From: Victivallales bacterium
Lineage (GTDB): Bacteria > Verrucomicrobiota > Lentisphaeria > Victivallales > JAUVCU01
DNA: 64,000 nucleotides
Assembly (NCBI GenBank): GCA_029934175.1
Contig: JAOZMT010000001.1
Span: 19,286 to 83,285 of the forward strand
Reading direction: 5' to 3'
The notes under the pieces were generated by a model. It saw only the letters and a list, made by a program, of their open reading frames with translations. It was not told the DNA's origin and did not search any database. The translations under genes and the position numbers were made by a program. Numbering within the stretch: position 1 is the stretch's first letter; the number at the start of each line of letters is the position of its first letter. Positions 38,006 through 62,008 of the stretch are shown piece by piece.

Positions 38006-38006
38006 T

Positions 38007-39494
38007 TTAACCTCCAAAATTTATTTTGATATATCTCCTTAATGGTTTGAATATTTTTGCAACATCATCCAAGTTTTGCCTTAAGTGCCATGCAATTCCA
38101 ACTTTGCGTTTATCATTTTCAGTATATGTGTGAGATATGCGTTTGTAACCTTTAACTCTAATTCCTGACGTTACTTTTCCTCTATTTTCTCTCAATCCAA
38201 ATAATACTAACTTTACTGGCTTTTTCAATCTTAATGTTTTTGCCCAATCTGCTACTTTATTTGCAATTTTGTGATTCCATTCGTCTGCAAAGATAATTTC
38301 CAAAGGAAATGTCTTTTTTCTTCTTGTGTTATTTAACTTAAGTTTCCAAAATTGGAGAATGCTATATGGTGGTTTTGGCGGATTATTTATGAATTCTAAA
38401 AACATTGCGGCTTCTTTTCGTGTTAATTTTGCTATTTTTACATAATCATCCTCAGTTGGTGGATCATTGTATTCTATTTGCTTTCCCTTTGTAGCCAATT
38501 TGGTTAAGTTTTTTATAATCTTCATTGAGATTCTGGCGATTTCTGGATGTGCAAAGATAGCCGCACTTGGTGTACGATATTCAAAACCCCAGTCTTTAGT
38601 TTCAAAACTAGATAGTTCACCGTAACCTTCTCTATAACATAATCTGTTCGTTCTCTTTCCTAAAAAGTCATCATAAGCGGTTAAAAGTGGATATGATGGC
38701 GTAACAGGTTTAACTTTTGTACCAAACTTAAATCCTACATGAATATGTCCACCTAACGGCGCTTCATTTGCAATTTGAACATCAAACCCATCGTCTTTAA
38801 CCCGCTTTAATAATCGCTTTATGTTACTTATTACGATTCTAGGATTTGATGATGGATCTGGTCTTAATTCTAGCTGTGTACCAGCTCCATCACAACCTAT
38901 TGGATTTTCTAAGCTATCGTATACATCTCTTGCCCTTACCCAAGTATTTCTCCTTATCATAAATTCTGGATCACATCCTAAAGTAATATCAATTTTTACT
39001 TTTGGATTTTTGGCCTTTTCTACTTTGCAATTTGGCCAATTAGTATCAATGCCTAACACTCTTACTATTGCCTTCAATGCCTTGTATGCGTGTGTTAAAT
39101 TATCATATTTGTGAGTAAAATCAGTTAATAAAAGTACCTTGTGTTTAGGTAAATAATGTCCAACAAAAATTCCATTAATTTTTAACTTGATTGTATCTAC
39201 AATCTCAAAGCCAGTAAAATTATTTGTCCAATCATGGAAAATGCTTACTTGATTAAAAAATTCATCATCTATATGAATATCAATCAAAGCAAAGGGCCTA
39301 AGTCTTATCCCATTATTTTCTGCATAGATATAAACACTAAATGGTGAGTCAAGCCAAGCGGTGCAATGATTTGCAAAAAGTCTTATATATGGAAATTTCT
39401 GTGCGTAACGCCTAATAAATGATGGCAAAGCTTCAGATGGACTTCTTACGTATCTAGCCCTATCTCTTGTCAATTCTAATCTTAGTCTTTTCAT
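38007..39494 (-). CDS. glutamine-synthetase-fold carboxylate-amine ligase (Amidoligase_2-like), copy 1
   Basis: Ordered motifs GCDPEF, GCDGAGTQLELRP, GGHIHVG and WGFEYRTPSA resemble the metal/ATP ligand pattern of GS-like amidoligases. Paralogue of 45557-46996. GGAGG RBS. Confidence 0.55.
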   Translation of the reverse strand: MKRLRLELTRDRARYVRSPSEALPSFIRRYAQKFPYIRLFANHCTAWLDSPFSVYIYAENNGIRLRPFALIDIHIDDEFFNQVSIFHDWTNNFTGFEIVDTIKLKINGIFVGHYLPKHKVLLLTDFTHKYDNLTHAYKALKAIVRVLGIDTNWPNCKVEKAKNPKVKIDITLGCDPEFMIRRNTWVRARDVYDSLENPIGCDGAGTQLELRPDPSSNPRIVISNIKRLLKRVKDDGFDVQIANEAPLGGHIHVGFKFGTKVKPVTPSYPLLTAYDDFLGKRTNRLCYREGYGELSSFETKDWGFEYRTPSAAIFAHPEIARISMKIIKNLTKLATKGKQIEYNDPPTEDDYVKIAKLTRKEAAMFLEFINNPPKPPYSILQFWKLKLNNTRRKKTFPLEIIFADEWNHKIANKVADWAKTLRLKKPVKLVLFGLRENRGKVTSGIRVKGYKRISHTYTENDKRKVGIAWHLRQNLDDVAKIFKPLRRYIKINFGG

Positions 39495-39843: not shown

Positions 39844-40506
39844 TTATAACCAAATCCCATAATTAAATGTAAAATTGATTTTATTTCCATTCTTATTCTT
39901 TTGTGCAATTTCTCTATCTTTCTTTTTGATTTTTATCCAATCTACATGCTGACCATCTGTCCATACACTATTTTCATTTCTAACAATTAGCCCTTCATAT
40001 CCCAATTCGTATATCCACTTTTTAATCAACTGCTGCAATTCTTTCCAATCCATAACCATCCACATTGGTGCAATTCTTAAATGCTCAAAATGTTCTGTTA
40101 ATTTAGTATAATGACTAAAATAATTAAAAGTTTGCCTAGCATCAAAATTAGTTCTATCTAATTTTTGCAAAATCCCAAATAAAGCTAGATTCAAATCATC
40201 GCTAGCCTTGTTTCTTAGTAATTGATAAAAATCTTCTTTTGTTCTTCCTGCGCCATAGTATAACTCTGCCAAATAGATTCCATCTGGAAGGTTTAATTTT
40301 TTGAATTCATGCAATGCTGGATAATCCAATCTATATCTGCCGTATTTATCTTTATTAACGCTAAATACTGTATCCTTTCTTTTGATAATATATTGTAATT
40401 CACCGTCTAGTTTCAAAGATACATAACATGGAAATTTAATATTATGCTTTGACCCTCTAAATTTACATAATGGAAGCTTATAGTTCTTCTTGGAGAATGT
40501 TTTCAT
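39844..40506 (-). CDS. minimal ATP-dependent DNA/RNA ligase (nucleotidyltransferase domain only)
   Basis: Motif I SLKLDGE, motif III GIYLAELYY, motif IV YEGLIVRN and motif V DWIKIKKK. Only ~30 aa follow motif V, so no OB domain is apparent. The start was moved to the GGAGG-supported ATG at 40506. Confidence 0.7.
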   Translation of the reverse strand: MKTFSKKNYKLPLCKFRGSKHNIKFPCYVSLKLDGELQYIIKRKDTVFSVNKDKYGRYRLDYPALHEFKKLNLPDGIYLAELYYGAGRTKEDFYQLLRNKASDDLNLALFGILQKLDRTNFDARQTFNYFSHYTKLTEHFEHLRIAPMWMVMDWKELQQLIKKWIYELGYEGLIVRNENSVWTDGQHVDWIKIKKKDREIAQKNKNGNKINFTFNYGIWL

Positions 40507-40681
40507 TTTTACCTCCATAAATTTCATCGGCTTCAATCTCTATATATAATCTCCTATACAACTGATATAATTTCCAATGTTTCAAGTTTAAATCGTTCCT
40601 ATTTAATTGGTCCTCAATCTCTTTTTCATAAAATTTTACAAATGCACAAGTCATTTCCTTGTATGTTTGCTTTCCATTCAT
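40478..40681 (-). CDS. hypothetical protein
   Basis: The start was moved to the ATG at 40681 (GGGAGG RBS). Confidence 0.5.
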   Translation of the reverse strand: MNGKQTYKEMTCAFVKFYEKEIEDQLNRNDLNLKHWKLYQLYRRLYIEIEADEIYGGKNENILQEEL

Positions 40682-40955: not shown

Positions 40956-41129
40956 TTAATTTAATAATGATTCAATTACTATAGCACTATCCACTATTTG
41001 CTCTGCTCTCTCTTTTGGTATTTCATAGTCTTTTATCAATTCGTCTATAACTTCTTGGATTTGTCTTTTTGCTTCATCTTCACTTACATTATATTTTTTT
41101 GCTAATTTTTTAATTAAATTCTTTTTCAT
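40956..41129 (-). CDS. 57-aa helical protein (MKKNLIKKLAKKYNVSEDEAKRQIQEVIDEL...)
   Basis: Not in the track. GGAGGT RBS 5 nt upstream. A conserved promoter sits directly upstream. Confidence 0.55.
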   Translation of the reverse strand: MKKNLIKKLAKKYNVSEDEAKRQIQEVIDELIKDYEIPKERAEQIVDSAIVIESLLN

Positions 41130-42609: not shown

Positions 42610-42996
42610 TTAAAAAAATTGATTCAAATAATCAACTATTGCCTTTTCAGTTTTCGGCATCCTTTTCAATTTAGGTCTTACTAACTTTGTTTTTTTCTTA
42701 GAACTTTCCAAGGCAGTCCTTAATTTTGCAAAACTGTCCATAATCGTTTCATTTTCCATCCAACCCAATTCCTTCCATGCTTGCCTTAAATTTTCTGCCG
42801 CTTCTGGATACCTTTTCCAATAAAAATTGGATACAAGCCCTAAAGGTTTACATTTAATATAAATAGCATTAATAACCTCACTTTCACTAAATCCTTCTTT
42901 TTGCCATTCTTCTTTGATTTTTAATAGATGTTTTTTCATTTGTTCTTTAGACATATAGGCTTTCAAGCCAATTGGCCTACCTTTTAATGTTTTCAT
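42610..42996 (-). CDS. hypothetical protein
   Basis: 128-aa ORF with a GGGGAGG RBS. Confidence 0.65.
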   Translation of the reverse strand: MKTLKGRPIGLKAYMSKEQMKKHLLKIKEEWQKEGFSESEVINAIYIKCKPLGLVSNFYWKRYPEAAENLRQAWKELGWMENETIMDSFAKLRTALESSKKKTKLVRPKLKRMPKTEKAIVDYLNQFF

Positions 42997-43521: not shown

Positions 43522-43668
43522 TTAAACCTCCTTTAAATCTATTAAATAGCCTAATATAAGGAAAAGCCACATAAGTGCAAACATTCTTAAATCGTGGTAG
43601 ATTAAGTAACCTATTGCACTGCCTATACATAAAATATCTGGCAATAACCTAATAAATAATTTAATCAT
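43522..43668 (-). CDS. 48-aa membrane protein
   Basis: Not in the track. GGAGGAAAG lies directly upstream. ATGA overlap with the upstream ORF. Sequence MIKLFIRLLPDILCIGSAIGYLIYHDLRMFALMWLFLILGYLIDLKEV. Confidence 0.5.
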   Translation of the reverse strand: MIKLFIRLLPDILCIGSAIGYLIYHDLRMFALMWLFLILGYLIDLKEV

Positions 43669-43835
43669 CTTTCCTCCTTGTAAATTTTTGCTTTATATAA
43701 AAAACAATAGACATAATCCTTGCCAGTTTTAAAATCTGTTTTTGGATTTCCGCCAAAACGGCAATAGTGACACTTCAAAAAACTAACTCCCATTTCTCTT
43801 TGAAACCTATAAATATTTTTCATTTTGAACTTCAT
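43665..43835 (-). CDS. 56-aa Cys-containing small protein
   Basis: Not in the track. GGAGAG RBS. Sequence MKFKMKNIYRFQREMGVSFLKCHYCRFGGNPKTDF... Confidence 0.45.
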   Translation of the reverse strand: MKFKMKNIYRFQREMGVSFLKCHYCRFGGNPKTDFKTGKDYVYCFLYKAKIYKEER

Positions 43836-44630: not shown

Positions 44631-44658
44631 TAATAATTATTTTAAACATGAAAGTCAA
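44631..44658 (-). promoter_or_regulatory. conserved early promoter variant TTGACT-N13-TAATTATTA
   Basis: The - strand reads TTGACTttcatgtttaaaaTAATTATTA. It overlaps the stop of ORF 44642-45031. Confidence 0.5.
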
Positions 44659-45031
44659 TAGTTACCTTAAACTTTTTAACAATTTTCCAAAAGTCCTGTT
44701 TATCCTTAAAGAAAAATAAATATTTATGCCATTCTTTTTCTTGACCTAATGACCAAGGTTTTGTTTCCATTCTTATGGAATATTTTTTTAAACAAAGAAA
44801 AAAATTAGATGATTCTTTATTTTTAGTTTTTTTAACTTTTAAAGTGCCATCCCATAAATTTCCTGTTATTTGTTCTAAATCATAATTTATATAGTCATCA
44901 AATGATCCAAAAGCTGCTTTAATAAACATACACATGTCACCAAAAAATGGCATTAAATCATATCTGGCCTGATCATGTTCTTTTATGATGAAAACCTTTT
45001 TTCCAATTTGTAGATTGTAATAAGATGCCAT
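44642..45031 (-). CDS. hypothetical protein, first gene of the leftward arm
   Basis: 129-aa ORF with a GGAG RBS, directly downstream of promoter 45051-45078. Confidence 0.65.
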   Translation of the reverse strand: MASYYNLQIGKKVFIIKEHDQARYDLMPFFGDMCMFIKAAFGSFDDYINYDLEQITGNLWDGTLKVKKTKNKESSNFFLCLKKYSIRMETKPWSLGQEKEWHKYLFFFKDKQDFWKIVKKFKVTIDFHV

Positions 45032-45050
45032 TTAAATCTCCTTTTCTTCT

Positions 45051-45078
45051 TAATAATCATTTCAAATATAAAAGTCAA
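45051..45078 (-). promoter_or_regulatory. conserved early promoter TTGACT-N13-TGATTATTA (leftward)
   Basis: The - strand reads TTGACTtttatatttgaaaTGATTATTAagaagaaaaGGAGatttaaATG. Confidence 0.7.
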
Positions 45079-45094: not shown

Positions 45095-45490
45095 TTAGAT
45101 AGACCTAATTTTTGCTGATTTTATCAATATTGTATTTGTGACTAAATCAACAATTTATTTTTTTGCCCATAAATTTGGGAAAAAAGAAAAGTTTGGATTC
45201 ATATTTTCCGAGAAAAAATTCATTTGCACTTCAAATAGAAAAGATTCGAGAAAAAGAAAATTTTTTGATTGAAAGGAAAAAGTTAGATGTTTCAAACAAT
45301 GTCTCATAAAACAAATTTAGTTGCACTTCAAATAAGAAAAGTTTTAATATTTTATTTTTTCTAAAGAGCAAGAGAAAGTTAGGTCTGCCAAAGTATCTTA
45401 GATTGGCCTAACAATGCATGGCGGGACTAACAATTAAATCTATGTCGAGAATTAGGTCTATCTAACATTGGCAATTGGACCTAATCGTAC
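45095..45490. repeat. iteron-like repeat cluster A in the divergent control region
   Basis: Copies of GTTAGKYC / RGNCTAAY in both orientations: agacctaat 45101, aagttagatg 45280, aagttaggtc 45376, ggcctaac 45405, ggactaac 45424, attaggtc 45451 and ggacctaat 45478. In addition, TTGCACTTCAAATA(A)GAAAAG occurs twice, at 45224 and 45321. Confidence 0.7.
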
Positions 45491-45500: not shown

Positions 45501-45528
45501 TTGACTGTAAGACCAATAATGATTATTT
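45501..45528 (+). promoter_or_regulatory. conserved early promoter TTGACT-N13-TGATTATTT (rightward)
   Basis: TTGACTgtaagaccaataaTGATTATTT. It lies inside the track's GTG-started ORF, which argues for the ATG at 45557 as the true start. Confidence 0.7.
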
Positions 45529-45556
45529 ACATCTTAGATTTAGTTTGGAGGTGATC

Positions 45557-46996
45557 ATGCAGAAGGTAGTCAAGCTAAAATTAGAGAATTCTTTTGATAC
45601 AAACGGTGCGGAGGCCTTGCCTAAGTTTTTAAGGACTTATGGCAAGGCTTTTTCTTTTATTAGAGGTTTTTATAATCATAGGGCTATAGATTATAAGTCA
45701 AAATCTGTTTATATATACCCTTATACCAGTATAACATATTGGTATTCTATAGTTATCCATTTTGATATTGATCTCCAATTTAATGGAGATCAAGAGGAGC
45801 TATTCTATGATTTAAGCTTAAACTATGCTTATAACAACATTAGTGATGGAATTTTAATAAAAAACAAAGGCAGGGTAATTGGCTATTATGATTTGAGATA
45901 TCAAAGATTGATCCTAAGTGACATTACCCATTATGATGATGAATTATATCTAAAAAATGCTTATATTGTTTTGAAAGCAATTACAAGATTTTTTAACTTA
46001 AAAAAGTTATGGCAAAGGAAATATATAGATATAACTGTTGGCTGTGATCCAGAATTTTGTTTGGTTGATAGATATGGTGATATTGTACATGCCAATGATT
46101 ACATTGACGATGATTATGGTGAAAATGAAATAGGTGTAGATGGTAGCGGAGATCAGTTAGAGCTTAGACCTGCACCAGGTACACCAAACCAGGTTATAAA
46201 TAACCTAAGAAGCTTGATCAAGCAAGTAAAAGAGGCAGGTTTTGGCATGGCGTTGACCGCTGATTTTAGTTTAGGCGGACATATTCATTTTGGTTTGGGT
46301 GGACAGGTGCATCCATCTAGAAGCTTACTAGATGTATTAGACGATTTTATTGGCATACCAACAAGGCATATGTGCGCCAGATATGGCTATGGTGCGCTAA
46401 GTAGTTATGAAACTAAGGAGTGGGGTTTTGAATATCGTACACCAAGTGCGGCTATCTTCTTATTTCCTAGCATTGCTAGGATAATTCTAAAATTGGCTAA
46501 AAATATAGTAGCAAAGGCAATAAAAAATCAAACGATTGCATACAATAATCCTCCACTATTAGAAGATTATGTAAAATTAGGTCTAACTAAGAATGAGGCC
46601 CAAAAACTATTAAATTTTTACAGCACCAAAAACTATTTGGGCTATAATGTGATTGGATATTGGCTAAATAATAAAAGGATGTATCAAAGAAAAACCTACC
46701 CATTGACATTGGAATTTGAGGATAGATGGAGCTTCTATACAAAGAAAAATCTCTTAGAATGGGCAAAGCATATGAAACTAAGAAGACCCATCACTTTAGT
46801 GTTATACGGACTTATGGAAAGTAGAGGAAAAGTGAACACGATAAAAATACCAGGGTATGGCGTAATACAACATGAGAAGAGTGAAAGTAGCGGCGGCTAT
46901 GCCATTGGTATATGTTATGACTTAAGGCAAGGCGCTAATGATTATAAGATTATTAGGGCAATTAGGAAATATTTAAGGGAAAAATTTAAGGTGTAA
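45557..46996 (+). CDS. GS-fold carboxylate-amine ligase (Amidoligase_2-like), copy 2
   Basis: GGAGG RBS then the ATG at 45557. Motifs GCDPEF, GVDGSGDQLELRP, GGHIHFG and WGFEYRTPSA. Colinear paralogue of 38007-39494. Confidence 0.55.
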   Translation: MQKVVKLKLENSFDTNGAEALPKFLRTYGKAFSFIRGFYNHRAIDYKSKSVYIYPYTSITYWYSIVIHFDIDLQFNGDQEELFYDLSLNYAYNNISDGILIKNKGRVIGYYDLRYQRLILSDITHYDDELYLKNAYIVLKAITRFFNLKKLWQRKYIDITVGCDPEFCLVDRYGDIVHANDYIDDDYGENEIGVDGSGDQLELRPAPGTPNQVINNLRSLIKQVKEAGFGMALTADFSLGGHIHFGLGGQVHPSRSLLDVLDDFIGIPTRHMCARYGYGALSSYETKEWGFEYRTPSAAIFLFPSIARIILKLAKNIVAKAIKNQTIAYNNPPLLEDYVKLGLTKNEAQKLLNFYSTKNYLGYNVIGYWLNNKRMYQRKTYPLTLEFEDRWSFYTKKNLLEWAKHMKLRRPITLVLYGLMESRGKVNTIKIPGYGVIQHEKSESSGGYAIGICYDLRQGANDYKIIRAIRKYLREKFKV

Positions 46997-47010
46997 AAGG
47001 GGGTAAAAAT

Positions 47011-47694
47011 ATGTGTATAATTGCTTACTGCAAGGAAAGAAAATTAAATTATAGTGAATTAACAAATTGCTGGTGTAATAACAATCATGGTGTCGGTGTA
47101 GCATGGCAAAGCAAAGGATTTGTTCACTTTAAAAAAGGATTTATGGAATTAAACGATTTTAAAGCATTCTATGATAAGTTTAATCATATTCCGCATGCTG
47201 TGCACTTCCGCACACAGACAAGTGGTGGTGTTTGCAAAGAATTAACTCATCCTTTTGTATTGGACTTTAAAAATCCTTTAGAAGGTAAAACTAAACAAGG
47301 CGTTTTATTTCATAATGGTATAATAACCGATTGGAGATCAAAGTTAGACATAATAGCTTATTACTGCATAAGAAAAAATAAAAAATTTCCTGTAGGTAAG
47401 ATGAGTGATAGCAGGGTAATGGCTATTTTAGTAAAGATTTTAGGCACGGGATATCTTGAATCTATAGCGGCTTATGATAGATTTTTGATTATGCGGCCTA
47501 ATGTTGTCACTTTATTAGGAGATTGGATAAAAGAAGATGGGATTTATTTTTCTAATTTAGATTATGAAGACTATAGTATCCTTTACAATAATACCGATTA
47601 TGATGATGATTTAGTCAGTTGTAGTTTTGGCTTTGAATGGGAAAAAACAAAGAAAAGGAGAAAGAAAAATGATAAAAGTTATCACAAAGTATAG
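47011..47694 (+). CDS. class II (Ntn) glutamine amidotransferase-like protein, copy 2
   Basis: Begins MCIIAYC. Colinear with 37316-38005 (HFRT.TSGG...ELTHPF, NPLEGKT..GVLFHNG, YYCIRK, SDSR, GIYFSN). Confidence 0.7.
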   Translation: MCIIAYCKERKLNYSELTNCWCNNNHGVGVAWQSKGFVHFKKGFMELNDFKAFYDKFNHIPHAVHFRTQTSGGVCKELTHPFVLDFKNPLEGKTKQGVLFHNGIITDWRSKLDIIAYYCIRKNKKFPVGKMSDSRVMAILVKILGTGYLESIAAYDRFLIMRPNVVTLLGDWIKEDGIYFSNLDYEDYSILYNNTDYDDDLVSCSFGFEWEKTKKRRKKNDKSYHKV

Positions 47695-50963: not shown

Positions 50964-50983
50964 GAAAAAGTAGGCGGCTTTTT

Positions 50984-51015
50984 GCCAAGGGCTTATTGTC
51001 CTTGGCATTTTTTTA
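50984..51015 (+). terminator. rho-independent terminator
   Basis: Stem GCCAAGG / CCTTGGC, a 9-nt loop, then ATTTTTTTA. Confidence 0.75.
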
Positions 51016-51134: not shown

Positions 51135-51460
51135 TGTTTGATGGGCCTAAGTTTTCTGCCCAGAAAAAATTAGGTCTATTTAAGTTAGTTCAATTTGACA
51201 AAGTTTGTTTGGCCTAACTAAGTTAGTTCCACAAAACAAAGTTAGTTCGCTTCAATAAAGTTAGTTCAGTGGAACTAAGTTAGTTCGACCTAACAAAGTT
51301 AGAAAAAAAAACATAGTTCACTTCAATGAAAGTTAGTTCAATCTAACAATGTTTGTTAGGCCGAACTAACTTAGTTTGGCCTAATTAACTTTTTAAGACG
51401 GAACTAAGAATTTGTTCCAGAAAAGTTAGGCCTATCTAAGATTGTCTATTGGAACTTGTC
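51135..51460. repeat. iteron cluster B, including an array of AAGTTAGTTC with a 19-bp period
   Basis: AAGTTAGTTC starts at 51182, 51220, 51239, 51258, 51277 and 51330, and 51220-51277 are spaced exactly 19 bp apart. A degenerate unit is at 51296. Palindromes GAACTAAGTTAGTTC (51271) and GAACTAACTTAGTTT (51363) are present, along with GGCCTAAS copies. Confidence 0.85.
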
Positions 51461-51484
51461 GTTTAGTATTAAAATTTTAATATC

Positions 51485-51512
51485 TTGACAAGGTAAAAAA
51501 TGATGATTATTA
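51485..51512 (+). promoter_or_regulatory. conserved early promoter TTGACA-N13-TGATTATTA
   Basis: TTGACAaggtaaaaaatgaTGATTATTA, upstream of the ArdC-like gene. Confidence 0.65.
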
Positions 51513-51540
51513 GTTAAGAAAAAGCACAAGGAGGTTTAAG

Positions 51541-52458
51541 ATGAATAAGGTCTATCAAATAGTCAATGAAAAGATTTTGGAAGGTCTCCGTCAAGGTCAA
51601 ATACCTTGGCGCAAGCCATGGGCTGTTAATGATATCCTTACTTTCCATAGAAACGTTATAACTAAAAAACCCTATAGAGGAATAAACGTAATTTTACTTA
51701 GTTTGGCTTGCCAAAAAAATAGAGATTATCGTAAGTTATGGCTAACATATAGGCAAGCCAAACAATTAGGAGGTTTCATCTATAAAAACAGCAAGCCTCA
51801 ATTAGTGGTTTATTGGAGCTTATACATTAAACTAAATGGTAAGCTTGTAAAACTACAAGATATACAAGATTTTATCGATGATAATGAAGATAAGGAAATA
51901 ATACCAATTTTAAGATACTATAATGTTTTTAATGTTGCTAACTTAGGACCTGATGATTTAAGAGAAAAAATCATTAAAAAATTTGACAATATAGCTAATA
52001 ACACCAAAAAAATTAATCCTATCAATAGGGCAGAAAAAATTATCGAAAAGTATATTGATAAGCCTCCAATTTATCAAGAAGATATTGACAAAGCTTATTA
52101 TTCATTATTAAGAGATGAGATTCACTTGCCAAAAAGAGATTATTTTATTAGTGCGGAGGAATACTACTCTACCCTATTTCACGAAATGGTGCACTCTACT
52201 GGACATCCCAAACGTTTGGCAAGATTAAATAGCAATTATACCCATGAGGACTATAGTCTTGAGGAATTAACTGCCGAAATAGGAAGCGCTTACTTGCTAA
52301 ATATAGCTAACATTGACATTGAGGCAGTTACCAAAAACAACATTGCTTATATACAAAGTTGGTATAAGCAATTAAGTAATAATCCTAAATGGATAACTTG
52401 GGCCGCTAGTAGGGCCCAAAAGGCAGTTGATTACATTTTAGGCATAAAACAAGATTAA
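51541..52458 (+). CDS. ardC: ArdC-like antirestriction protein (ssDNA-binding N-domain + zincin metalloprotease)
   Basis: N-terminal WRKPW, YRGINVILL and TYRQAKQLGG. C-terminal HEMVHSTGH and EELTAEIGSAYL. AGGAGG RBS. Confidence 0.8.
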   Translation: MNKVYQIVNEKILEGLRQGQIPWRKPWAVNDILTFHRNVITKKPYRGINVILLSLACQKNRDYRKLWLTYRQAKQLGGFIYKNSKPQLVVYWSLYIKLNGKLVKLQDIQDFIDDNEDKEIIPILRYYNVFNVANLGPDDLREKIIKKFDNIANNTKKINPINRAEKIIEKYIDKPPIYQEDIDKAYYSLLRDEIHLPKRDYFISAEEYYSTLFHEMVHSTGHPKRLARLNSNYTHEDYSLEELTAEIGSAYLLNIANIDIEAVTKNNIAYIQSWYKQLSNNPKWITWAASRAQKAVDYILGIKQD

Positions 52459-52470
52459 AAAAAATTAAAT

Positions 52471-52508
52471 GGCATAGGAAATTTTAAAAATCCTATGCCA
52501 TTTTTTTA
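52471..52508 (+). terminator. rho-independent terminator
   Basis: Stem GGCATAGGA / TCCTATGCC, an 11-nt loop, then ATTTTTTTA. Confidence 0.8.
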
Positions 52509-52553
52509 TGCAAAAATCGTTCACTATGCAAAAATTATGCCAATATGCAAAAA
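52507..52553 (+). repeat. three direct TATGCAAAAA repeats (18-19 bp period)
   Basis: Starts at 52507, 52525 and 52544. Related ATGCAAAAAA copies occur at 54377 and 55937. Confidence 0.7.
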
Positions 52554-52588
52554 CTATGCCACGATAGAATATTTTAATAATGTTTAGT

Positions 52589-52840
52589 GGACCTAACTTT
52601 TGTGGAAAAAATCCTAGGCCGCTTCAATAAAGTTAGTTCACTTCAATAAACTTAAAGCACTTCAATAATGTTAGGTCGGCCTAACATTCTCCAAAGAAAG
52701 TTAGATTATGTAAAAAAATGTCAAGATTGCTAAACAAAGTTAGGCCCAGAAAACTTTGTTAGACGGCCTAAGAATGTCTATTGGAACTAACAAAGTTAGT
52801 CCAGGCATCTTCCGAACTAACTTTGTCTAATGGGCCTAAC
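52589..52840. repeat. iteron cluster C, including 3 x 19-bp tandem units CTTCAATAA-N-GTTAGKYC
   Basis: Units at 52622-52640, 52641-52659 and 52660-52678. Additional GTTAGKYC / RGNCTAAY copies and the near-palindrome GGAACTAACAAAGTTAGTCC are present. Confidence 0.85.
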
Positions 52841-52989
52841 ATTTGACAATTTATTATACTTTTGTGTCAATTTTGGCATATGTGTCAATTTAACACGCAC
52901 ACAACATAAGTATATTAAAGATATCCTTAATATATCTATGTTTTAATGTTGGCATAATGTTTGCATTAAATCCTAAGTGGGAGGCAAGG

Positions 52990-53133
52990 ATGAGGAAAAT
53001 AGCGGGGAATTTAACATATAAGGAGGCCATAGACCTTGTCTCTGAATTGTGGGGACAAGGTCTATATGAAGATGTAGACCTTATAAAGGCCAAGGATGGC
53101 CTTTATGAGGTTTATGTCTTAGATATTGACTAA
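52990..53133 (+). CDS. 47-aa hypothetical protein
   Basis: Not in the track. GGGAGG RBS. Preferred over the antisense track ORF 52890-53093. Confidence 0.45.
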   Translation: MRKIAGNLTYKEAIDLVSELWGQGLYEDVDLIKAKDGLYEVYVLDID

Positions 53134-53149
53134 AAAAGGAGGTGATAAA

Positions 53150-53341
53150 ATGAAAGTCCGCATCACAAAAAAACTATTGGCAGAGGTTCCTCAGGAAGTT
53201 AAAGAGATGTATCTTTTTTATAAAAAGTGCGTGGAGGAAGATTATAGAAGATACGGGTCCCCTGGCATTGGCGTTTATGCTTTGTACAAGTCCAGTAGGA
53301 GTAGAGTTATTGAAATTTTAAAACAAAAAAAATTAATTTGA
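53150..53341 (+). CDS. hypothetical protein
   Basis: The start was moved to the AGGAGG-supported ATG at 53150. Confidence 0.6.
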   Translation: MKVRITKKLLAEVPQEVKEMYLFYKKCVEEDYRRYGSPGIGVYALYKSSRSRVIEILKQKKLI

Positions 53342-53354
53342 AAGGAGGCAAAGA

Positions 53355-53486
53355 TGTACAAATTAATCAAATTAGATGTCTTCAAAGGCTTGGCAATAGT
53401 GGAAAGATTAAAGGATAACAAGACATTTGTAATTAACATTTACGTTTTAAATTTCCTAGCAAGTAACAAGCTATTAGTAAGCTAAG
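53355..53486 (+). CDS. 43-aa hypothetical protein
   Basis: Not in the track. AGGAGG RBS. Confidence 0.45.
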
Positions 53487-53497
53487 GAGGTGATAGA

Positions 53498-53680
53498 ATG
53501 AAATTGATAATTAAAGGCTTAGGATGGAATACAAGCTTAAATGTTAGGATTCATAATAAAGACGTAGTGATTAATAAAAACGATTTTGAAAAATTCTTAA
53601 AAATCTTAGCTTATACCCACGATATCATAAGTGGGGGGTTTGACTATGAATTTAAGGAGGTGATGAATAATGAAAAATAA
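53498..53680 (+). CDS. hypothetical protein
   Basis: 60-aa ORF with an AGGAGG RBS. Confidence 0.55.
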   Translation: MKLIIKGLGWNTSLNVRIHNKDVVINKNDFEKFLKILAYTHDIISGGFDYEFKEVMNNEK

Positions 53681-54011
53681 AATTTATATGTTAAATGCTA
53701 TTAGTCTTAACTTAGTCAATACTGATAAAGTAGATTTTTTTATGGTGAAGACGTCAATTGAAAGTGCCAAGGAATGGATGAAAGGAAAAACGGCTATTAG
53801 TGCTGTACGTCATGATCTCCAACACTTTGCTAGGGAAATAGCAAAGGATGCAAAGGAGTATAAAGAGGTTTCTGAGTTAAAGCTTGATACACCAATGGCT
53901 TATAATACCGTGGTAATACAGTATAAAGGTCCTAGATTGCCAGAAGGTGCAACAACATTGCCTCCTAATGCCAAATTGGAAATTTGGGAAGGTATCATTA
54001 GAGTATATTAA
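53670..54011 (+). CDS. DUF1874 / STIV-B116-like protein
   Basis: The pattern IYMLNAISLN .. ISAVRHD.. .. VVIQYKGPRLPEGATTLP resembles the DUF1874 family (G.RLPEG motif). The call comes from motif recall only. Confidence 0.45.
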   Translation: MKNKIYMLNAISLNLVNTDKVDFFMVKTSIESAKEWMKGKTAISAVRHDLQHFAREIAKDAKEYKEVSELKLDTPMAYNTVVIQYKGPRLPEGATTLPPNAKLEIWEGIIRVY

Positions 54012-54018
54012 ATTTTAA

Positions 54019-54057
54019 TTGGCATAGGGTTATTAATCCCTATGCCAATTTTTTTTT
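54019..54057 (+). terminator. rho-independent terminator
   Basis: Stem TTGGCATAGGG / CCCTATGCCAA, an 8-nt loop, then T9. The stem shares the GGCATAGG core with terminator 52471. Confidence 0.8.
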
Positions 54058-54091: not shown

Positions 54092-54346
54092 GTTAGGCCG
54101 ACCTATTATTTTAAATTTAAATGTCTAATTGACCTAATTTATGCCACTAAAATATAGTTAAACTCTACATCAAATAAAGTTAGGTCTATGCTAAATATTA
54201 AATTTAATATTTCTGTCTCACTAGACAATGTTAGATAGACCTAACAATTCCAGAAAAGGTAGGTGAATAAAGGGAAATAAAGCAATTGGCATGATTATTG
54301 CATAAGAAAATGTTAAGATATCTAAACAACGTTTAATGGGCCTAAC
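54092..54346. repeat. iteron cluster D
   Basis: gttaggccgacctat 54092, tgtctaattgacctaat 54122, aagttaggtc ~54178, gttagatagacctaac ~54229 and cgtttaatgggcctaac 54330. Confidence 0.7.
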
Positions 54347-54650
54347 ATATGCAATTTCCGTGCCAAGATAAACTGCATGCAAAAAATGTGCCAAAAGCAA
54401 AAAAACATTGGAAAAATGGGCGTTTTTTTCAGAAGTGCACGGGGGGCGGGCTGGCGACTTAGGCTCATTCTAAAATATATTTCATTTTTCCATTTTTTCC
54501 CTATTTCTTTTTTTTCTAGAACCTTTTCCAATTATAAATACATACTTGCCCACCAGAATGATGGGCAAGTGGAGGCATGGAGATGATGAAGGTGGCTAGA
54601 GAGCTATATATATTATAATACTTAATTTTCAAAAAGTCAATACCTTAATA

Positions 54651-54722
54651 TTAATCACTACCATATACGAAAATTAGAATGAAAATTAAAAGACATACAT
54701 ATGCTGTTATTGCTTCTGTCAT
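54651..54722 (-). CDS. 23-aa hydrophobic micro-protein (MTEAITAYVCLLIFILIFVYGSD)
   Basis: Not in the track. GGAGT RBS 8 nt upstream. Tandem paralogue of 54764-54838. Confidence 0.4.
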   Translation of the reverse strand: MTEAITAYVCLLIFILIFVYGSD

Positions 54723-54763
54723 ATTTTATCACTCCTTTTTTTAATTTTTAAAAAGTCCTTGAA

Positions 54764-54838
54764 TTAATCATTGCCATATATGAAAAGTAAAATTAAACCA
54801 TATATAAAAAGTAAAATTAAGATATATGTTTCTATCAT
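54764..54838 (-). CDS. 24-aa hydrophobic micro-protein (MIETYILILLFIYGLILLFIYGND)
   Basis: Not in the track. GGAGT RBS 7 nt upstream. It starts 20 nt downstream of the tRNA 3' end. Confidence 0.4.
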   Translation of the reverse strand: MIETYILILLFIYGLILLFIYGND

Positions 54839-54857
54839 TTTTTTACTCCTTCTTTAG

Positions 54858-54947
54858 CGGAGGGAGCAGGATTCGAACCTGCGAGAGCCCTTTTGGGACT
54901 CCAGCGGTTTTCAAGACCGCCGCCTTTAACCACTCGGCCACCCCTCC
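54858..54947 (-). tRNA. tRNA-Ser (anticodon UGA)
   Basis: The reverse complement folds as a cloverleaf.
- Acceptor stem GGAGGGG/TCCCTCC (one G-U).
- D arm GCC-GAGTGGTTAAA-GGC.
- Anticodon stem GCGGT/ACCGC with loop CTTGAAA.
- Long variable arm.
- T arm GCAGG-TTCGAAT-CCTGC.
- Discriminator G; no encoded CCA. Confidence 0.93.
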
Positions 54948-56998: not shown

Positions 56999-57958
56999 TT
57001 ATAAATCATTAGCCAAAATTCTACTTCTTCTCGGTAAAAACCACCTATTATACCAATACTCCAAATTGTCTTTCAATGACAATAAAGTTTCACAAACATA
57101 AACACCACGAACTAATTTAGGAATTTTGAATGATAATTTGATTCCAGCTTCCTGTAAGTGATCATACATCCTAATTACATGTTCCGCCAATGCAGTCTTT
57201 TTTATTTTCCTATGTGGAAAATGTTTTTTGTAAAGTTTTTGAATTTCTTCTATGCATTCTTCAGGTAAGACTGAGTGTAAACCTTCTGTTAGTCCAAGAT
57301 ATTTCAAATTTCTCACTCTATTATACAATGATGATTTTCCAAATACAGAAGTTGTAAAGACTGCCTCTATATCAGTTCCATATTTTTCATTGAATATATT
57401 GATTATTTCTTTGCTTAATGCTACAAATACAGCTAATTTCCCAGAAAGGAATTTGGTTAATATTCCAAAACTGATGCAAACGGATAAATCAACAATTTTT
57501 TTATTAATAAATGAAAAATTAATTTTACCATATTTATTTTTAATCCATTCGGCTAATTGTTTATTCAAAACAGGTGAGCCATATTGTATATATGCCAATG
57601 GAATATTATCATGATATACAAGCAAATCTAATTGTCTTCCCACTCTACCTTTATAATACATAGATGATATATTGTTAATGAATAATCTTTTTGGAAAAGG
57701 CAAATCATATTCTTTAACTATAATTTTGTTTATATCAAAGGAATTGATTAGAGATTCTTGTAGTTTTGATATATTATTTAACCATACTTTTATTCGTGAA
57801 TCTTGTTTTTTAAATTGATTATAATATTCACGTTGTTCTTCTTTTGTTGATATTTCTTCTTTAATAATAGGTTTTTCATATATTGAGAATGAATACTTAA
57901 CTTTTTTTCTAACTATCTTATCTTTTGGCTTGCTTTTTATTAAATTGAAATAATGCAT
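56999..57958 (-). CDS. DUF4338-like protein (the family that includes Druantia DruA)
   Basis: The ordered pattern GR.GRQLDLLVYH...PLAYIQYGSP .. LS.K.LA .. KYGTDIEAVFTTSVFGKSSLYNRV.NLKYLGLTEG resembles the DUF4338 consensus (GR.lRyLv, ETFVd...f.GtcYkAaNW..lG.T.G). Motif recall only. Confidence 0.4.
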   Translation of the reverse strand: MHYFNLIKSKPKDKIVRKKVKYSFSIYEKPIIKEEISTKEEQREYYNQFKKQDSRIKVWLNNISKLQESLINSFDINKIIVKEYDLPFPKRLFINNISSMYYKGRVGRQLDLLVYHDNIPLAYIQYGSPVLNKQLAEWIKNKYGKINFSFINKKIVDLSVCISFGILTKFLSGKLAVFVALSKEIINIFNEKYGTDIEAVFTTSVFGKSSLYNRVRNLKYLGLTEGLHSVLPEECIEEIQKLYKKHFPHRKIKKTALAEHVIRMYDHLQEAGIKLSFKIPKLVRGVYVCETLLSLKDNLEYWYNRWFLPRRSRILANDL

Positions 57959-58114: not shown

Positions 58115-58525
58115 TTAAAAATTTAAATAGTCTTTTGCCCATTTAATCTTAGCTTTTTGGTTATTTTTTGGTGAAACTAAGCGAAGTGTTATAGCTGCTC
58201 TGCCTTGCTCGAATTCTTTAGAAGGTATATAATAACACTTATCAGTTGTTTCATCGTAAACAGCTATCCAATCGACAGTTTGTGAAGTATATTTTTTTGT
58301 TTTCCAATTATTAGTGGATCTACAAGAAACTATTATCGTTCTTCCATCTGATTTTACATATTTACATTGTAATCTCTCGAATTTTCCATTTTTTTCATCT
58401 TTCAGTACTAGCAGATCGAAATCCCAATCCTCACCATAAGGTATAGCTACTTTATAGCCTTTTTTTAATATGTCCGACATAATGGCAATTTCACCCATGT
58501 ATCCCTTTTGTTTTGATAAACCCAT
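58115..58525 (-). CDS. PD-(D/E)xK endonuclease (PF11645-like)
   Basis: KGYMGEIAI..DILKKGYKVAIPYGED.DFDLLV......FERLQCKYV fits the G.E ... D ... Q.K nuclease core. The ATG at 58525 with an AGGTGA RBS is preferred over the GTG at 58534. Confidence 0.6.
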   Translation of the reverse strand: MGLSKQKGYMGEIAIMSDILKKGYKVAIPYGEDWDFDLLVLKDEKNGKFERLQCKYVKSDGRTIIVSCRSTNNWKTKKYTSQTVDWIAVYDETTDKCYYIPSKEFEQGRAAITLRLVSPKNNQKAKIKWAKDYLNF

Positions 58526-58534
58526 ATTCTTCAC

Positions 58535-58931: not shown

Positions 58932-59465
58932 TTATTCACCTTTGAAATTAATCTTTATATCACTTTCTATTTCATTGCCCCAACAATACCAACCAGCTCT
59001 CTTTCTTCTTGCAAATAATTCTAGCCTTGGTTTTGGACTAACTGGTTCTATCCATTCATATATTTCAATTGGCTTTTCACTATGTGCTTTAACTTTGGTT
59101 TGCAGAAAATTAGCCTTTTGGCAACGGAATGCTTTAACTTTTCCTTTTATTCCCAAAAGCAACATTTCAACTTGTCCTCTAAACCAAAATCCCATACCCA
59201 ATGACATAATCTTTCGCCAAAAGATAGCTGTTTTATATCTAAATCCCCATGTTTTCATAAGCTCCAATGCTTCAGGTAATAATGGAACGGTAGCCCAAAG
59301 CCATAAGATACAATCTTTATCTGCCAATTCATTTATTGGAAATGTCTTTAATTTTTCTAAACTTATAACAGGATATTTTTGAACCGCACTACTTTCCATT
59401 TGGAAACCTGTTCTCTCATTTTTGTATTGCCAAGGTGGATCTGCTAAAATTGTTCTGAATTTCAT
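58932..59465 (-). CDS. MT-A70-family N6-adenine DNA methyltransferase
   Basis: ILADPPWQY, LWLWAT, WGFRYKT..FW.K, HSEKP and ELFARR.R.GW.CWGNE. Confidence 0.88.
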   Translation of the reverse strand: MKFRTILADPPWQYKNERTGFQMESSAVQKYPVISLEKLKTFPINELADKDCILWLWATVPLLPEALELMKTWGFRYKTAIFWRKIMSLGMGFWFRGQVEMLLLGIKGKVKAFRCQKANFLQTKVKAHSEKPIEIYEWIEPVSPKPRLELFARRKRAGWYCWGNEIESDIKINFKGE

Positions 59466-60467: not shown

Positions 60468-61124
60468 TTAAATTTTCCATAATAATCTTTCCTTTGTGGT
60501 TTTTAATGCTTCAAGATTAATATCACATCCGATAAATCTTCTTTTCATTTCTTGACACAAGACAACTACATTTCCACCACCTGTGAATGCATCTAAAACC
60601 AAATCGTTTTCTTTAGTTGTCATTTCTAAAATCCTTTTTACAACAGTTGGCGATATTTGTTCTTTATGATATAATTTGCCACGAGCACAATCATCCCATA
60701 AATCAGTCAAACCTTTTATTCTATTCCAATATTTAGGCGGCCTTTTTTTAGAAACCAACATTAAAATATTATAATGGTATGGAAGATATTTCCAAGACCA
60801 TCTAATTATGTTCTTAACACAAATGATATTTAAAACATCAAATTTATTTGAAAAATGTTTACTAAATTTATACATCATTATAGGTTGCCAAAAAACTGCT
60901 AGAATTCTATAAGGTTTTAAAATACGGTAAAATTCATTAGCTGTATCAAAAATAAATGTTTCTAATATTTCATCATTAGTTATTCTTTTATTATTTTTTA
61001 TTAAATAACTAAATGGATAATCAGCTATTATGCAATCTATACTTTCATTTTCAATTTCTTTAGTCAAATCTAATATATCGCTATGATAAATTTTCCCCAA
61101 TTTATTCTCAAAATATAATTTCAT
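60468..61124 (-). CDS. beta-class N4/N6 DNA methyltransferase with atypical motif IV (DYPF)
   Basis: N-terminal IIADYPF occupies the place of (D/S)PP(Y/F). C-terminal HKEQISPTVV and LDAFTGGGNVVV..RRFIGCDIN form the AdoMet motif I. Confidence 0.75.
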   Translation of the reverse strand: MKLYFENKLGKIYHSDILDLTKEIENESIDCIIADYPFSYLIKNNKRITNDEILETFIFDTANEFYRILKPYRILAVFWQPIMMYKFSKHFSNKFDVLNIICVKNIIRWSWKYLPYHYNILMLVSKKRPPKYWNRIKGLTDLWDDCARGKLYHKEQISPTVVKRILEMTTKENDLVLDAFTGGGNVVVLCQEMKRRFIGCDINLEALKTTKERLLWKI

Positions 61125-62008
61125 AATAGTTTTGGAACTACTCTTTTTAATCTTTCTTCGCCTATTTTACAATATTCTTCAAAAATATCAATACAAATGT
61201 AATTTCTTTTTAATAATTTAGCAGCTTTACAAGTTGTGCATGAACCTGCCAATGGGTCTAAAACTAAATCATCTTCATTAGTCCAAGTTCTTATATGATC
61301 AATAGCCAATTGTTCTGGAAATATAGCTGGATGTTTATATGCTATTTCATCTTTTGTAGAAAAACCATAACCAGTATTATATTTCCAGACGTTACGCCTA
61401 ATACTATATTCATGATAATTTATAAATTTTTTCCTAACTAACGTACCATCTTTCAATCTTTCACTTCGTTGTCCCCAAGGTTCTTTCCATTTTACTTTTC
61501 TATCCTTAATTGGATTAAATGTTTTTGGTGTTCCTTTTGAAATAACAAACATATATTCAAAGCATTGATAATATCTATTTTTCTCTGGAAAAGGCGCACT
61601 ATTTTTCATGTAAATCATTGTATCATGCAAATTGAAGCCAATTTCCTTAAAATATAATGCATATCTGAAAGATGTTCCAGATTCTGAACCATTTATTACT
61701 GCATCATTGCATACCCAAACTATTACACCACCGTCTTTCATTATTCTATATAACTCTTTGGACAATTGTTTAAATTTTTCAAAATTCCAGATTTTATTTA
61801 ATTCTTTTTCATTTGAAGTTTTGTAGAATCTAGTATTGTCGTAAGGGGGCGATGTAACGACTAAATCGATACATTCGTTTGGAAAAGTTTTCAATATTTC
61901 AACGCAATCGCCGCATATTATTTTGTTTTTTGTAAAATTCTTCATCGGCTTTGATGACACAGAGTAGGTTACAGGCATGTTTTGATATGCCTTCTTTAAT
62001 ACATTCAA
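61121..62008 (-). CDS. beta-class N4/N6 DNA methyltransferase (SPPY type)
   Basis: DLVVTSPPYDN, KHPAIFPEQL and LDPLAGSCTT..RNYICIDI. The track start at 62008 is TTG. Internal ATGs at 61978 and 61945 are alternatives, so the start is uncertain. Confidence 0.85.
   Translation of the reverse strand: MNVLKKAYQNMPVTYSVSSKPMKNFTKNKIICGDCVEILKTFPNECIDLVVTSPPYDNTRFYKTSNEKELNKIWNFEKFKQLSKELYRIMKDGGVIVWVCNDAVINGSESGTSFRYALYFKEIGFNLHDTMIYMKNSAPFPEKNRYYQCFEYMFVISKGTPKTFNPIKDRKVKWKEPWGQRSERLKDGTLVRKKFINYHEYSIRRNVWKYNTGYGFSTKDEIAYKHPAIFPEQLAIDHIRTWTNEDDLVLDPLAGSCTTCKAAKLLKRNYICIDIFEEYCKIGEERLKRVVPKLL

Follow-up and report, generated by a model that had tools for sequence, protein, structure and literature searches.

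Phase-locked arrays of a 19-bp palindrome in a novel tailed phage and their possible role in transcription control

Why should the DNA on either side of an ArdC-like anti-restriction gene be filled with a short repeat set exactly 19 bp apart? This question is raised by a 64,000-nucleotide stretch of contig JAOZMT010000001.1, the whole of which is referred to here as the window. It comes from a novel tailed phage with a GC content of ∼30%, among whose recognisable genes are those for a tape-measure protein, a helicase, a Ku-like protein, an ATP-dependent ligase, a Lon-like protease, methyltransferases and a GH108 endolysin; searches with its proteins against known phages gave distant matches only, and exact-protein look-ups beyond the window edges recovered short contigs only. 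An earlier reading of the same DNA (the original prediction) had likened the repeats to iterons or parS-type sites flanking the ArdC-like gene. Judged from the sequence, the interpretation favoured here, which we hold tentatively and a little short of probable, is that they are cooperative regulator-binding (enhancer or operator) arrays for early and accessory transcription units. Three features point to transcription control: the placement of the arrays between terminators and promoters, the sigma-54-type elements beside them and a helical phase relative to the −35 box that has been kept.

A palindromic unit on a 19-bp lattice

The repeats predicted upstream of the gene were all recovered. 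Exact copies of AAGTTAGTTC begin at 51220, 51239, 51258 and 51277, 19 bp apart, with a degenerate fifth unit, AAGTTAGAAA, at 51296, and the outliers at 51182 and 51330 proved to be exact AAGTTAGTTC copies; exact minus-strand copies occur at 51363 and 52814. The two 15-bp palindromes that had been described were located at 51272 to 51286 and 51363 to 51377. Downstream of the gene, the three CTTCAAT-type 19-bp units were present at 52622 to 52678, with an inverted copy, GGAACTAACAAAGTTAGTCC, at 52781 to 52800, and the further half-site clusters at 45.1 to 45.5 kb and 54.1 to 54.35 kb were also found. The generalised motif of the sites was W-W-W-G-TTAG-[G/T]-[T/C]-C-N-A. Its core, GTTAGKYC, gave 31 matches in the window against 3.0 ± 1.9 in shuffled sequences, an approximately tenfold enrichment, and 27 of these matches were concentrated in four intergenic regions, together 3.9% of the window. 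For the shorter core TTAGKYC, 37 sites were counted in 2.5 kb of intergenic DNA against 35 across the remaining 61.5 kb, and AAGTTAGTTC with no more than one mismatch was matched 20 times compared with 6.3 ± 2.5 in shuffles. One short motif is arrayed in four regions of the window, at the same positions as in relatives (see below), and the arrays are as follows.

45375 to 45490: array 1, with five TTAGKYC sites (45379+, 45405−, 45424−, 45452+ and 45478−) and an outlier at 45102 to 45108
51144 to 51432: array 2, with sixteen TTAGKYC sites, including four exact AAGTTAGTTC units at 51220 to 51286
52590 to 52845: array 3, with ten TTAGKYC sites, including the CTTCAAT-type units at 52622 to 52678 and the palindrome GTTAGGTCGGCCTAAC
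52843 to 52891, plus strand: spacer between array 3 and a sigma-54-type promoter, with G(A/T)CAATTT three times (52845, 52866 and 52884), conserved in six lineages
54092 to 54346: array 4, with five TTAGKYC sites in a block that is near-invariant across five lineages, and holding a plus-strand sigma-54-type element at 54287 to 54302

The original prediction spoke of iterons. The unit is not a direct iteron but a palindrome, GRMCTAAC-WAA-GTTAGKYC (8-3-8, 19 bp), used in both orientations and abutting its neighbours. Sites in the same orientation were spaced by 19, 38, 57 or 76 bp, convergent pairs by 13+19n and divergent pairs by 6+19n, and all of these preferred spacings arise because the units are abutting 19-bp palindromes. 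Divergent pairs also fell at 2 (+19n). A second register, offset by 4 bp, is produced by the 15-bp palindrome GRMCTAA-G-TTAGKYC. Within the window alone, 43 of 118 site pairs lying within 120 bp of each other were in 19-bp register, compared with 6.0 ± 2.4 after random placement, and only 19 bp stood out when periods of 8 to 29 were scanned. The same period was found separately by Tandem Repeats Finder (TRF) and by a repeat finder, and TRF also detected higher-order 38-bp and 57-bp repeats. In array 2, 10 of the 16 sites share one 19-bp phase over ∼220 bp (51185 to 51407), and a single register can be followed from 51159 to 51405 with one slip. The continuous lattice reaches ∼12 units in the window, where contiguous units cover 120 to 290 bp per array, and ∼35 sites in relative L176, where they cover up to 660 bp.

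Half-site centres are 11 bp apart within a unit, which places both halves on one side of the helix, and 8 bp apart between neighbouring units. The latter spacing yields recurring 16-bp palindromes of the form GTTAGKYC|GRMCTAAC, such as GTTAGGTCGGCCTAAC at 52670 to 52685. In many units one of the halves is degenerate and reads CTTCAAT or CCAGAAAA, and these variants were conserved as well.

Relatives were recovered by exact-protein and homologue look-ups and by one metagenome scan with a conserved 21-mer. L033 was identical to the window and L034 was ∼95% identical; the more distant, syntenic relatives (L155 to L158, L159/L172, L171, L174, L176, L179 and L180) had protein identities of ∼55% to 95%. 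In every recovered relative the TTAGKYC arrays were present at matching positions and followed the same lattice, with sigma-54-type elements in the same arrangement, and motif, lattice and array positions were kept in at least seven contigs whose flanking proteins were only 55 to 60% identical. The check on related phages that had been proposed with the original prediction thus found motif and phasing both conserved. Differences between the window and L034 exchanged GGCC, GACC and GAAC within the motif, and the number of units differed between lineages. Beyond these relatives, the arrays had no near or distant DNA match among INPHARED phages or PLSDB plasmids. In IMG/VR, ArdC homologues (32 loci, ≤41% identity) lacked the motif, a three-site degenerate pattern retrieved unrelated tandem repeats only, and both the exact two-unit pattern and the 21-mer were without a match. 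Distant contigs reached through a second ligase paralogue (L160 to L162) or through a 128-amino-acid (aa) protein (L163 to L165) had neither arrays nor sigma-54-type elements. The exact 21-mer, CTAAGAWTGTCTATTGGAACT, was also observed in eight unrelated AT-rich metagenome contigs (L167 to L170, L173, L175, L177 and L178) with no arrays and no sigma-54-type elements, an occurrence judged, without a computed expectation, to be more than chance.

Promoters, terminators and the ArdC cassette

The following features surround the arrays; the promoters are predicted.

45050 to 45078, minus strand: leftward sigma-70-like promoter, TTGACT-17-TATTAA, of the operon starting with a 129-aa gene (44642 to 45031)
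45501 to 45529, plus strand: rightward sigma-70-like promoter, TTGACT-17-TATTTA, of the operon starting with the COOH-NH2 ligase gene (45557 to 46996)
50983 to 51007, plus strand: intrinsic terminator ending the first rightward operon, directly before array 2
51426 to 51513, plus strand: promoter-proximal module, consisting of TTAGGCC-TATCTAAG-ATTGTCTATTGGAACT, the A/T palindrome ATTAAAATTTTAAT (51468 to 51481) and the ArdC sigma-70-like promoter
51541 to 52458, plus strand: ArdC-like anti-restriction gene, with ArdcN and zincin metallopeptidase domains (Pfam, PHROGs)
52470 to 52507: terminator hairpin after ArdC, preceded by an A-run and followed by a T-run, and hence bidirectional in appearance; identical in L034
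52527 to 52561, minus strand: two tandem sigma-54-type elements, 19 bp apart, facing the ArdC terminator
52950 to 52965, plus strand: sigma-54-type promoter TGGCATAATGTTTGCA, which precedes the ATG at 52990 by 40 nt and would drive an operon of five small genes (52990 to 54011)
54017 to 54050, plus strand: intrinsic terminator ending the 52990 to 54011 operon, directly before array 4
54350 to 54365 and 54378 to 54393, minus strand: two sigma-54-type elements converging on the plus-strand element at 54287 to 54302, within ∼100 bp

The region from 45.5 to 54 kb consists of rightward operons of small genes. All four arrays probably occupy non-transcribed DNA, as array 1 lies between divergent promoters and each of arrays 2, 3 and 4 is bounded by an intrinsic terminator (50983, 52470 and 54017, respectively) and the next promoter. 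Array 1, the region of which is conserved in L159 and L157, separates the sigma-70-like promoters of the leftward and rightward early operons; these two promoters form an inverted-repeat pair, and the leftward one is invariant in three lineages. The same divergent control region holds two copies of GCACTTCAAATA (45226 to 45240 and 45325 to 45340), ∼100 bp apart and invariant in three lineages, and conservation in the left half of the region exceeds that of the genes on either side.

Four sigma-70-like promoters have TATTGACW-N15-ATGATTATT in common, the ArdC promoter being TTGACA (51485 to 51490)-17-TATTAG (51508 to 51513). A proximal module was common to arrays 1 and 2 in all lineages, with TTAGGYC-TATCTAAS-ATTG...ATTRGAMCT followed by ATTAAAATTTTAAT and then TTGACA. 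The distance from its TTAG to the −35 box was 59 bp in nine cases and 49 bp in two independent cases with differing sequences. The latter comprise array 1 of the window, where the proximal TTAGGTC is 49 bp upstream of the rightward −35 box, and array 2 of L159/L171. Loss of one helical turn on two occasions fits a protein held to one helix face relative to RNA polymerase, an indication that is suggestive only.

The sigma-54-type elements add to what had been noted earlier for this DNA. Six exact TGGCAY-N5-TTGCA (−24/−12) elements were detected, compared with 0.04 expected, and all lie between 52527 and 54393 beside arrays 3 and 4, with exact −24 TGGCA and −12 TTGC blocks at the canonical spacing. 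Across nine loci, 36 such elements (28 of them distinct) were found in which the −24/−12 blocks were invariant and the N5 spacer variable, and every gene-proximal plus-strand element was followed 40 to 55 nt downstream by a Shine-Dalgarno sequence and a start codon. The arrangement at 52950 recurred in L034, L155, L159, L171, L174, L176 and L179, the tandem pair at 52527 to 52561 was conserved with a changed N5 spacer in L034, L159, L171 and L179, and the convergent arrangement at cluster 4 was conserved in L157, L159, L176 and L179. The tandem pair could also yield an RNA of ∼45 to 85 nt antisense to the 3′ end of ardC. L159 (12660 to 12830) and L171 (2459 to 2620) carry a mini-cassette, inserted between array 3 and the next promoter, in which a sigma-54-type promoter and a Shine-Dalgarno sequence are followed by a hydrophobic open reading frame (ORF) of 23 aa, MLDFMILVFGLWGLGYLIYKICG, and a terminator. 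The self-contained nature of this mini-cassette argues that the sigma-54-type elements are working promoters.

The arrays had been presented as flanking the ArdC-like gene, but comparison showed that they do not belong to it. ArdC is missing from L155, L157 and L176, which keep arrays 2 and 3 in fused form, array 2 running directly into array 3 with fusion breakpoints that differ and lie at or just past the −35 TTGACA. From these ArdC-less relatives it follows that a single array was ancestral and that the ArdC cassette, made up of a sigma-70-like promoter, the gene, a terminator and the minus-strand pair of sigma-54-type elements, is an insertion within it rather than a part of the repeat system. 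The ancestral layout thus comprised a terminator, one long array, a conserved ∼100-bp spacer, a sigma-54-type promoter and small genes, with the large array 100 to 700 bp upstream of the promoter; the long array of L176 spans ∼660 bp and has ∼28 sites.

Breakpoints of variable cassettes lie inside the arrays for the ArdC cassette, the L159 mini-cassette and a differing insert in L157. The arrays therefore double as borders of variable cassettes, as do the PeSL (promoter plus stem-loop) modules of T4-type phages, in which repeated promoter-terminator modules bound small non-essential early genes and provide breakpoints for insertion, deletion or replacement (PMC2839356, PMC4122927). PeSLs differ in being short and in having no long phased array, whereas the modules described here are 400 to 900 bp long and include sigma-54-type promoters. 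Could recombination be the only role? On such a reading, repeat-rich terminator-promoter modules would have spread by unequal crossing-over and been kept, like PeSLs, for shuffling accessory genes. It has this precedent (PMC2839356, PMC4122927) and is in keeping with the presence or absence of the ArdC cassette at differing breakpoints inside arrays, with the extra mini-cassette of L159 and L171 and the different insert of L157, with the variation in unit number among lineages and with the 38-bp and 57-bp repeats, which point to recent duplication. It leaves unexplained, however, the strict 8-3-8 palindromic unit, the substitutions that stay within the motif, the maintenance of the lattice at 55 to 60% protein identity and the fixed, helically phased distance to the −35 box, and we consider it quite improbable.

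The DNA around array 4 invites a different explanation. A GC-rich island at 54437 to 54465, consisting of GCACGGGGGGCGGGCTGGCGAC followed by TTAGGCT, may serve as a cos or pac site or belong to a structured RNA, and the arrays might be signals for packaging or DNA entry, either small-terminase (cosB-like) sites or injection-pause sites near a genome end, with cleavage at the island (54437 to 54458). The island lies in a genome of 30% GC; it is conserved in five lineages at 100 to 350 bp from array 4, it ends in a TTAGGCY site, transcription converges on it, and the presence of Ku-like and ligase genes hints at a linear genome whose ends have to be joined. Nonetheless, arrays 1 to 3 are 2 to 9 kb away from the island, the window has no terminase gene, no relative's contig ends at the island and the argument is one of resemblance alone, making this the least likely of the alternatives. 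Within cluster 4, a block of ∼140 bp (54097 to 54235) was near-invariant in five lineages whose proteins differ by up to 45%, and contains a perfect 20-bp palindrome, AAATATTAAATTTAATATTT. RNAalifold gave low energies for this cluster on both strands, which are explained by the DNA palindromes, and an Rfam scan returned the tRNA only.

A possible regulator and the competing readings

The mechanism envisaged for transcription control is that one sequence-specific protein, probably a dimer, would bind the arrays cooperatively and that the resulting filament on the lattice would influence RNA polymerase at the promoters on either side. It would serve as an enhancer (upstream activating sequence [UAS]) for the sigma-54-type promoters and as an activator or repressor, dependent on the face of the helix, for the sigma-70-like ones. 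Early genes, the anti-restriction gene included, would then be switched together after DNA entry. As a by-product, the terminator-array-promoter modules would act as recombination breakpoints through which accessory cassettes are gained or lost.

Several observations weigh against this interpretation. With 5 to 35 sites over 120 to 660 bp, the arrays go far beyond known sigma-54 enhancers or ordinary operators and are nearer to the scale of centromeres; a period of 19 bp does not correspond to an integral number of helical turns; the sigma-70-like promoters are located downstream of the arrays and are not overlapped by them; and sigma-54-type elements are lacking at array 1. Of the six such elements in the window, four are directed not towards a gene but towards a terminator or one another. 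Neither a GAFTGA-like motif, the mark of a bacterial enhancer-binding protein (bEBP), nor an RpoN box was found in six-frame translations of the window. The phasing argument of 10 bp is based on just two events, and the high conservation of entire intergenic regions means that greater constraint on sites than on spacers is not demonstrable. Finally, no array-binding protein was identified among the window ORFs. The GAFTGA-like motif was also not found in L155, L157 and L159, and a bEBP may be host encoded.

The search for the binding protein covered ∼75 ORFs with Pfam or PHROGs, and no initiator, Rep, O, DnaA, RepA-like, ParA/ParB, actin-like, tubulin-like, repressor or bEBP domain was detected, in agreement with the earlier remark that no initiator, ParB or repressor gene was recognisable. 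The only clear DNA-binding domain was an N-terminal helix-turn-helix (HTH) on a MoxR/midasin-like (CobS-like) AAA+ ATPase (33179 to 34303, minus strand), which pairs with a 573-aa protein (31461 to 33182, minus strand) bearing a C-terminal von Willebrand factor A (VWA) MIDAS motif (VDISSSM); the pair is 79% conserved in L155. Other scan results were weak winged-HTH-like matches on a 57-aa protein and zinc ribbons. Candidate binders comprised a 63-aa protein (53150 to 53341), always encoded by the first or second gene after the sigma-54-type promoter; a basic and very conserved 128-aa protein (42610 to 42996); a 56-aa Cys-rich protein (43665 to 43835); and the 57-aa protein (40956 to 41129). 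AlphaFold2 models of the first two were confident (predicted local distance difference test scores of 94.5 and 80, respectively), and Foldseek gave no significant PDB match for either. Sequence searches of the PDB with the 128-aa protein and with a 385-aa protein gave no matches. The case for the 128-aa protein was weakened by L163 to L165, relatives that carry the protein but no arrays, and the 385-aa protein was rejected as a ParM- or TubZ-like motor, its sequence consisting of beta-rich repeats and being neither actin- nor tubulin-like. Retention of the same motif at 55 to 60% protein identity suggests that the binder is a host factor or a strongly constrained phage protein.

One part of the iteron/parS-type reading stands, in that the repeats are phased, clustered and of the kind bound by sequence-specific proteins, while the companion genes that it calls for are missing from the window and from the syntenic contigs. 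Its two forms can be weighed separately. Under the first, the arrays would be an iteron-type origin or copy-control element, their 19-bp units being bound by an unrecognised phage initiator that melts AT-rich DNA next to them. One array could then be the origin and the others control arrays, as with incC/incA of P1 or ori2/incC of F. The lambda origin has four 19-bp repeats, and P1 incC/incA and F ori2/incC have 19-bp iterons flanking rep. The likeness lies in the 19-bp unit, in arrays on both sides of a gene and in the AT-rich DNA adjacent to them; the phased units are clustered in non-transcribed DNA, AT-rich palindromes adjoin the arrays (ATTAAAATTTTAAT at 51468 to 51481 and the perfect 20-bp palindrome of cluster 4), and no other origin or initiator was identified in the window. 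Promoters next to origins are common, as in lambda, T7 and T4. Array 1 also sits at a strand switch that is the minimum of cumulative GC skew, but the skew switch coincides with the switch in gene orientation and so is uninformative alone. The HTH-AAA+ protein at 33179 to 34303, although weakly similar to MCM, belongs to the MoxR/midasin type and has a VWA protein as its partner, and no Rep, O, DnaA or RepA-like domain occurs in the ∼75 ORFs. Plasmid iterons, those of the RepA/RepE type among them, are direct repeats spaced by about two helical turns, whereas the units here are palindromic, occur in both orientations and abut at a 19-bp period. There are, moreover, four arrays with up to 35 sites, and the flanked gene is not an initiator but the dispensable ArdC, without which the arrays fuse. 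Taken together, these points make an origin distinctly unlikely.

Under the second form, the arrays would be centromere-like or DNA-positioning elements of the ParR/parC, omega/parS, StbA/stbS or TubR/tubC type, with a dual or purely segregational role; a small DNA-binding protein would coat the contiguous repeats, and the superhelical complex so formed would be moved within the cell or anchored there. The protein might also act as a repressor. The contiguous-repeat form of centromere arrays is matched, in form only: abutting units over 120 to 660 bp in both orientations agree in scale and contiguity with known centromeres, and the 16-bp palindromes GTTAGKYC|GRMCTAAC recur in the arrays. Several arrays in promoter regions of one replicon are also found in pSM19035 (PMC9499535) and R388 (bioRxiv 10.1101/2022.04.29.490116), and StbA-type systems work without an NTPase. 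No ParA, ParM, TubZ or ParB-type gene was found, however, in the window or in the syntenic contigs L155 to L159, the 385-aa protein with its beta-rich repeats offers no motor, and no integrase, repressor or plasmid-maintenance gene was found in a gene content that looks like that of a lytic tailed phage. A segregational role is accordingly rated as hardly more likely than an origin.

Within transcription control, a more specific proposal is that this tailed-phage lineage runs part of its early anti-defence programme via host sigma-54, using unusually long 19-bp-lattice enhancers and a factor that is not a classical bEBP. We regard this as unlikely; candidate factors may be the HTH-MoxR-type AAA+ protein (33179 to 34303) or a small protein of the phage through which an activator of the host is recruited. 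Sigma-54 sites of opposite orientation by the terminators may be roadblocks of parked polymerase, or promoters for antisense or small RNAs. Sigma-54 holoenzyme is known to occupy many sites without being transcriptionally active (PMC4591121, a sigma-54 binding map of E. coli), and such occupancy could account for the oddly oriented elements here. Genome scans for the host matched nothing but one metagenome-assembled genome labelled 'uncultured bacterium'. An archaeal host, suggested by archaeal labels on metagenome-assembled genomes and by Zn-ribbon matches, was judged unlikely in view of the intrinsic terminators, −35 boxes and sigma-54 elements, and also of a bacterial-type tRNA T-loop and a GH108 endolysin with a peptidoglycan-binding domain. 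An Frpo-like single-strand promoter was considered for the imperfect palindrome of array 2 and set aside, its symmetry following from the palindromic units; a tailed phage is expected to deliver double-stranded DNA.

Phage context, known systems and meaning

Other observations concern the remainder of the window. A Ku-like DNA-end-binding protein (30709 to 31416, minus strand) and an ATP-dependent DNA ligase (39844 to 40536, minus strand; 92 to 94% identical across lineages) are encoded. Two paralogous modules (45557 to 47694, plus strand, and 37316 to 39494, minus strand) each contain a phiEco32-like COOH-NH2 ligase and a partner of 227 or 233 aa; near them are an ATP-grasp protein resembling ribosomal S6 modification enzymes (36273 to 37314, minus strand) and a SprT-like protein, which together suggest a gene set for peptide ligation or modification. 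Defence- or anti-defence-like genes, all on the minus strand (24279 to 26501, 56999 to 57958, 58115 to 58534, 58932 to 59465 and 60468 to 62008), have as products a Lon/BrxL-like AAA+ protease, a DruA-like protein, a PD-(D/E)XK nuclease, an MT-A70 methyltransferase and two N6/N4 methyltransferases. The tail module includes a single ORF of 3368 aa (6195 to 16301, plus strand). A 24-bp unit, CCATATATRAAAAGTAAAATTAAA, occurs three times at 54661 to 54821, beside the 3′ end of a minus-strand tRNA-Ser(TGA) gene (54857 to 54947), and a strong sigma-70-like promoter (54640 to 54612, minus strand) aims at a hairpin at 54570 to 54544.

The closest parallels to the arrays are found in plasmids. In R388, the promoters of ardC and its neighbours carry StbA-binding repeat arrays and are repressed by StbA and ArdK (PMC3937220; bioRxiv 10.1101/2022.04.29.490116), the stbDR arrays lying in five promoters including that of ardC (bioRxiv 10.1101/2022.04.29.490116). 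As in the window, one short motif is arrayed (in 2 to 10 copies in R388) in several promoter regions, the ardC promoter among them (PMC3937220; PMC9723621). The repeats are contiguous and phased, and are bound cooperatively in R388 by a small HTH protein; the R388 system controls genes needed right after DNA entry, and ArdK is a single regulator that reads both direct and inverted repeats. The two differ in that R388 has 9-bp direct repeats with an 11-bp period and the phage a 19-bp palindrome with a 19-bp period, and in that the phage arrays have up to 35 sites, lie upstream of promoters rather than over them and belong to a tailed phage with sigma-54-type promoters instead of a plasmid. Homologues of StbA, ArdK or KorA were not found here. 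In pSM19035, six parS sites of 7 to 10 heptads, the sites of the RHH-type ParB protein omega, overlap promoters (PMC9499535), and their contiguous direct and inverted repeats in promoter regions resemble the phage arrays; contiguity is functionally required there and the arrays have both operator and centromere roles (PMC9499535, PMC2441792). The centromere-binding protein is also a repressor both at pSM19035 parS and at R388 stbS (PMC9499535; bioRxiv 10.1101/2022.04.29.490116). The heptads of pSM19035 are, in contrast, 7 bp long and non-palindromic, and pSM19035 has its own delta (ParA) and omega genes, neither of which was found here.

Systems in which sigma-54 acts with a UAS bound by the bEBPs NtrC, NifA or PspF share the exact, correctly spaced −24 GG/−12 GC blocks and the palindromic sites ∼45 to 700 bp upstream with an AT-rich spacer between. 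Known sigma-54 enhancers have 2 to 5 sites, whereas the arrays here have 10 to 35 on a 19-bp lattice; in addition, no bEBP is encoded in the window and some arrays serve sigma-70-like promoters. No account of a phage early region that uses sigma-54 was found in a search of the literature, nor any of long phased arrays combined with sigma-54-type promoters in phages. The arrays are a sequence family without a known relative but of a known kind of element, namely, phased arrays that control the entry genes of mobile elements. What is new is that the unit is a palindrome of 19 bp repeated at a 19-bp period, that an array can hold as many as 35 sites, that the element is a tailed phage and that the arrays are coupled to sigma-54-type promoters.

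If the arrays are instead an origin or a centromere, they would point to a new family of initiator or segregation proteins, since no known one is encoded nearby. Whatever their role, the site is well defined and conserved, so that its binding protein can be sought directly, and the arrays mark the borders at which anti-defence and accessory cassettes are swapped, which helps in reading hypervariable regions of uncultivated phage genomes. If they are regulatory, as favoured here, this phage would control its early genes by very long, phase-locked arrays of a single palindromic site together with sigma-54-type promoters, and the logic of the leading region of conjugative plasmids, in which repeat arrays set a burst of anti-restriction after DNA entry, would extend to a virus.

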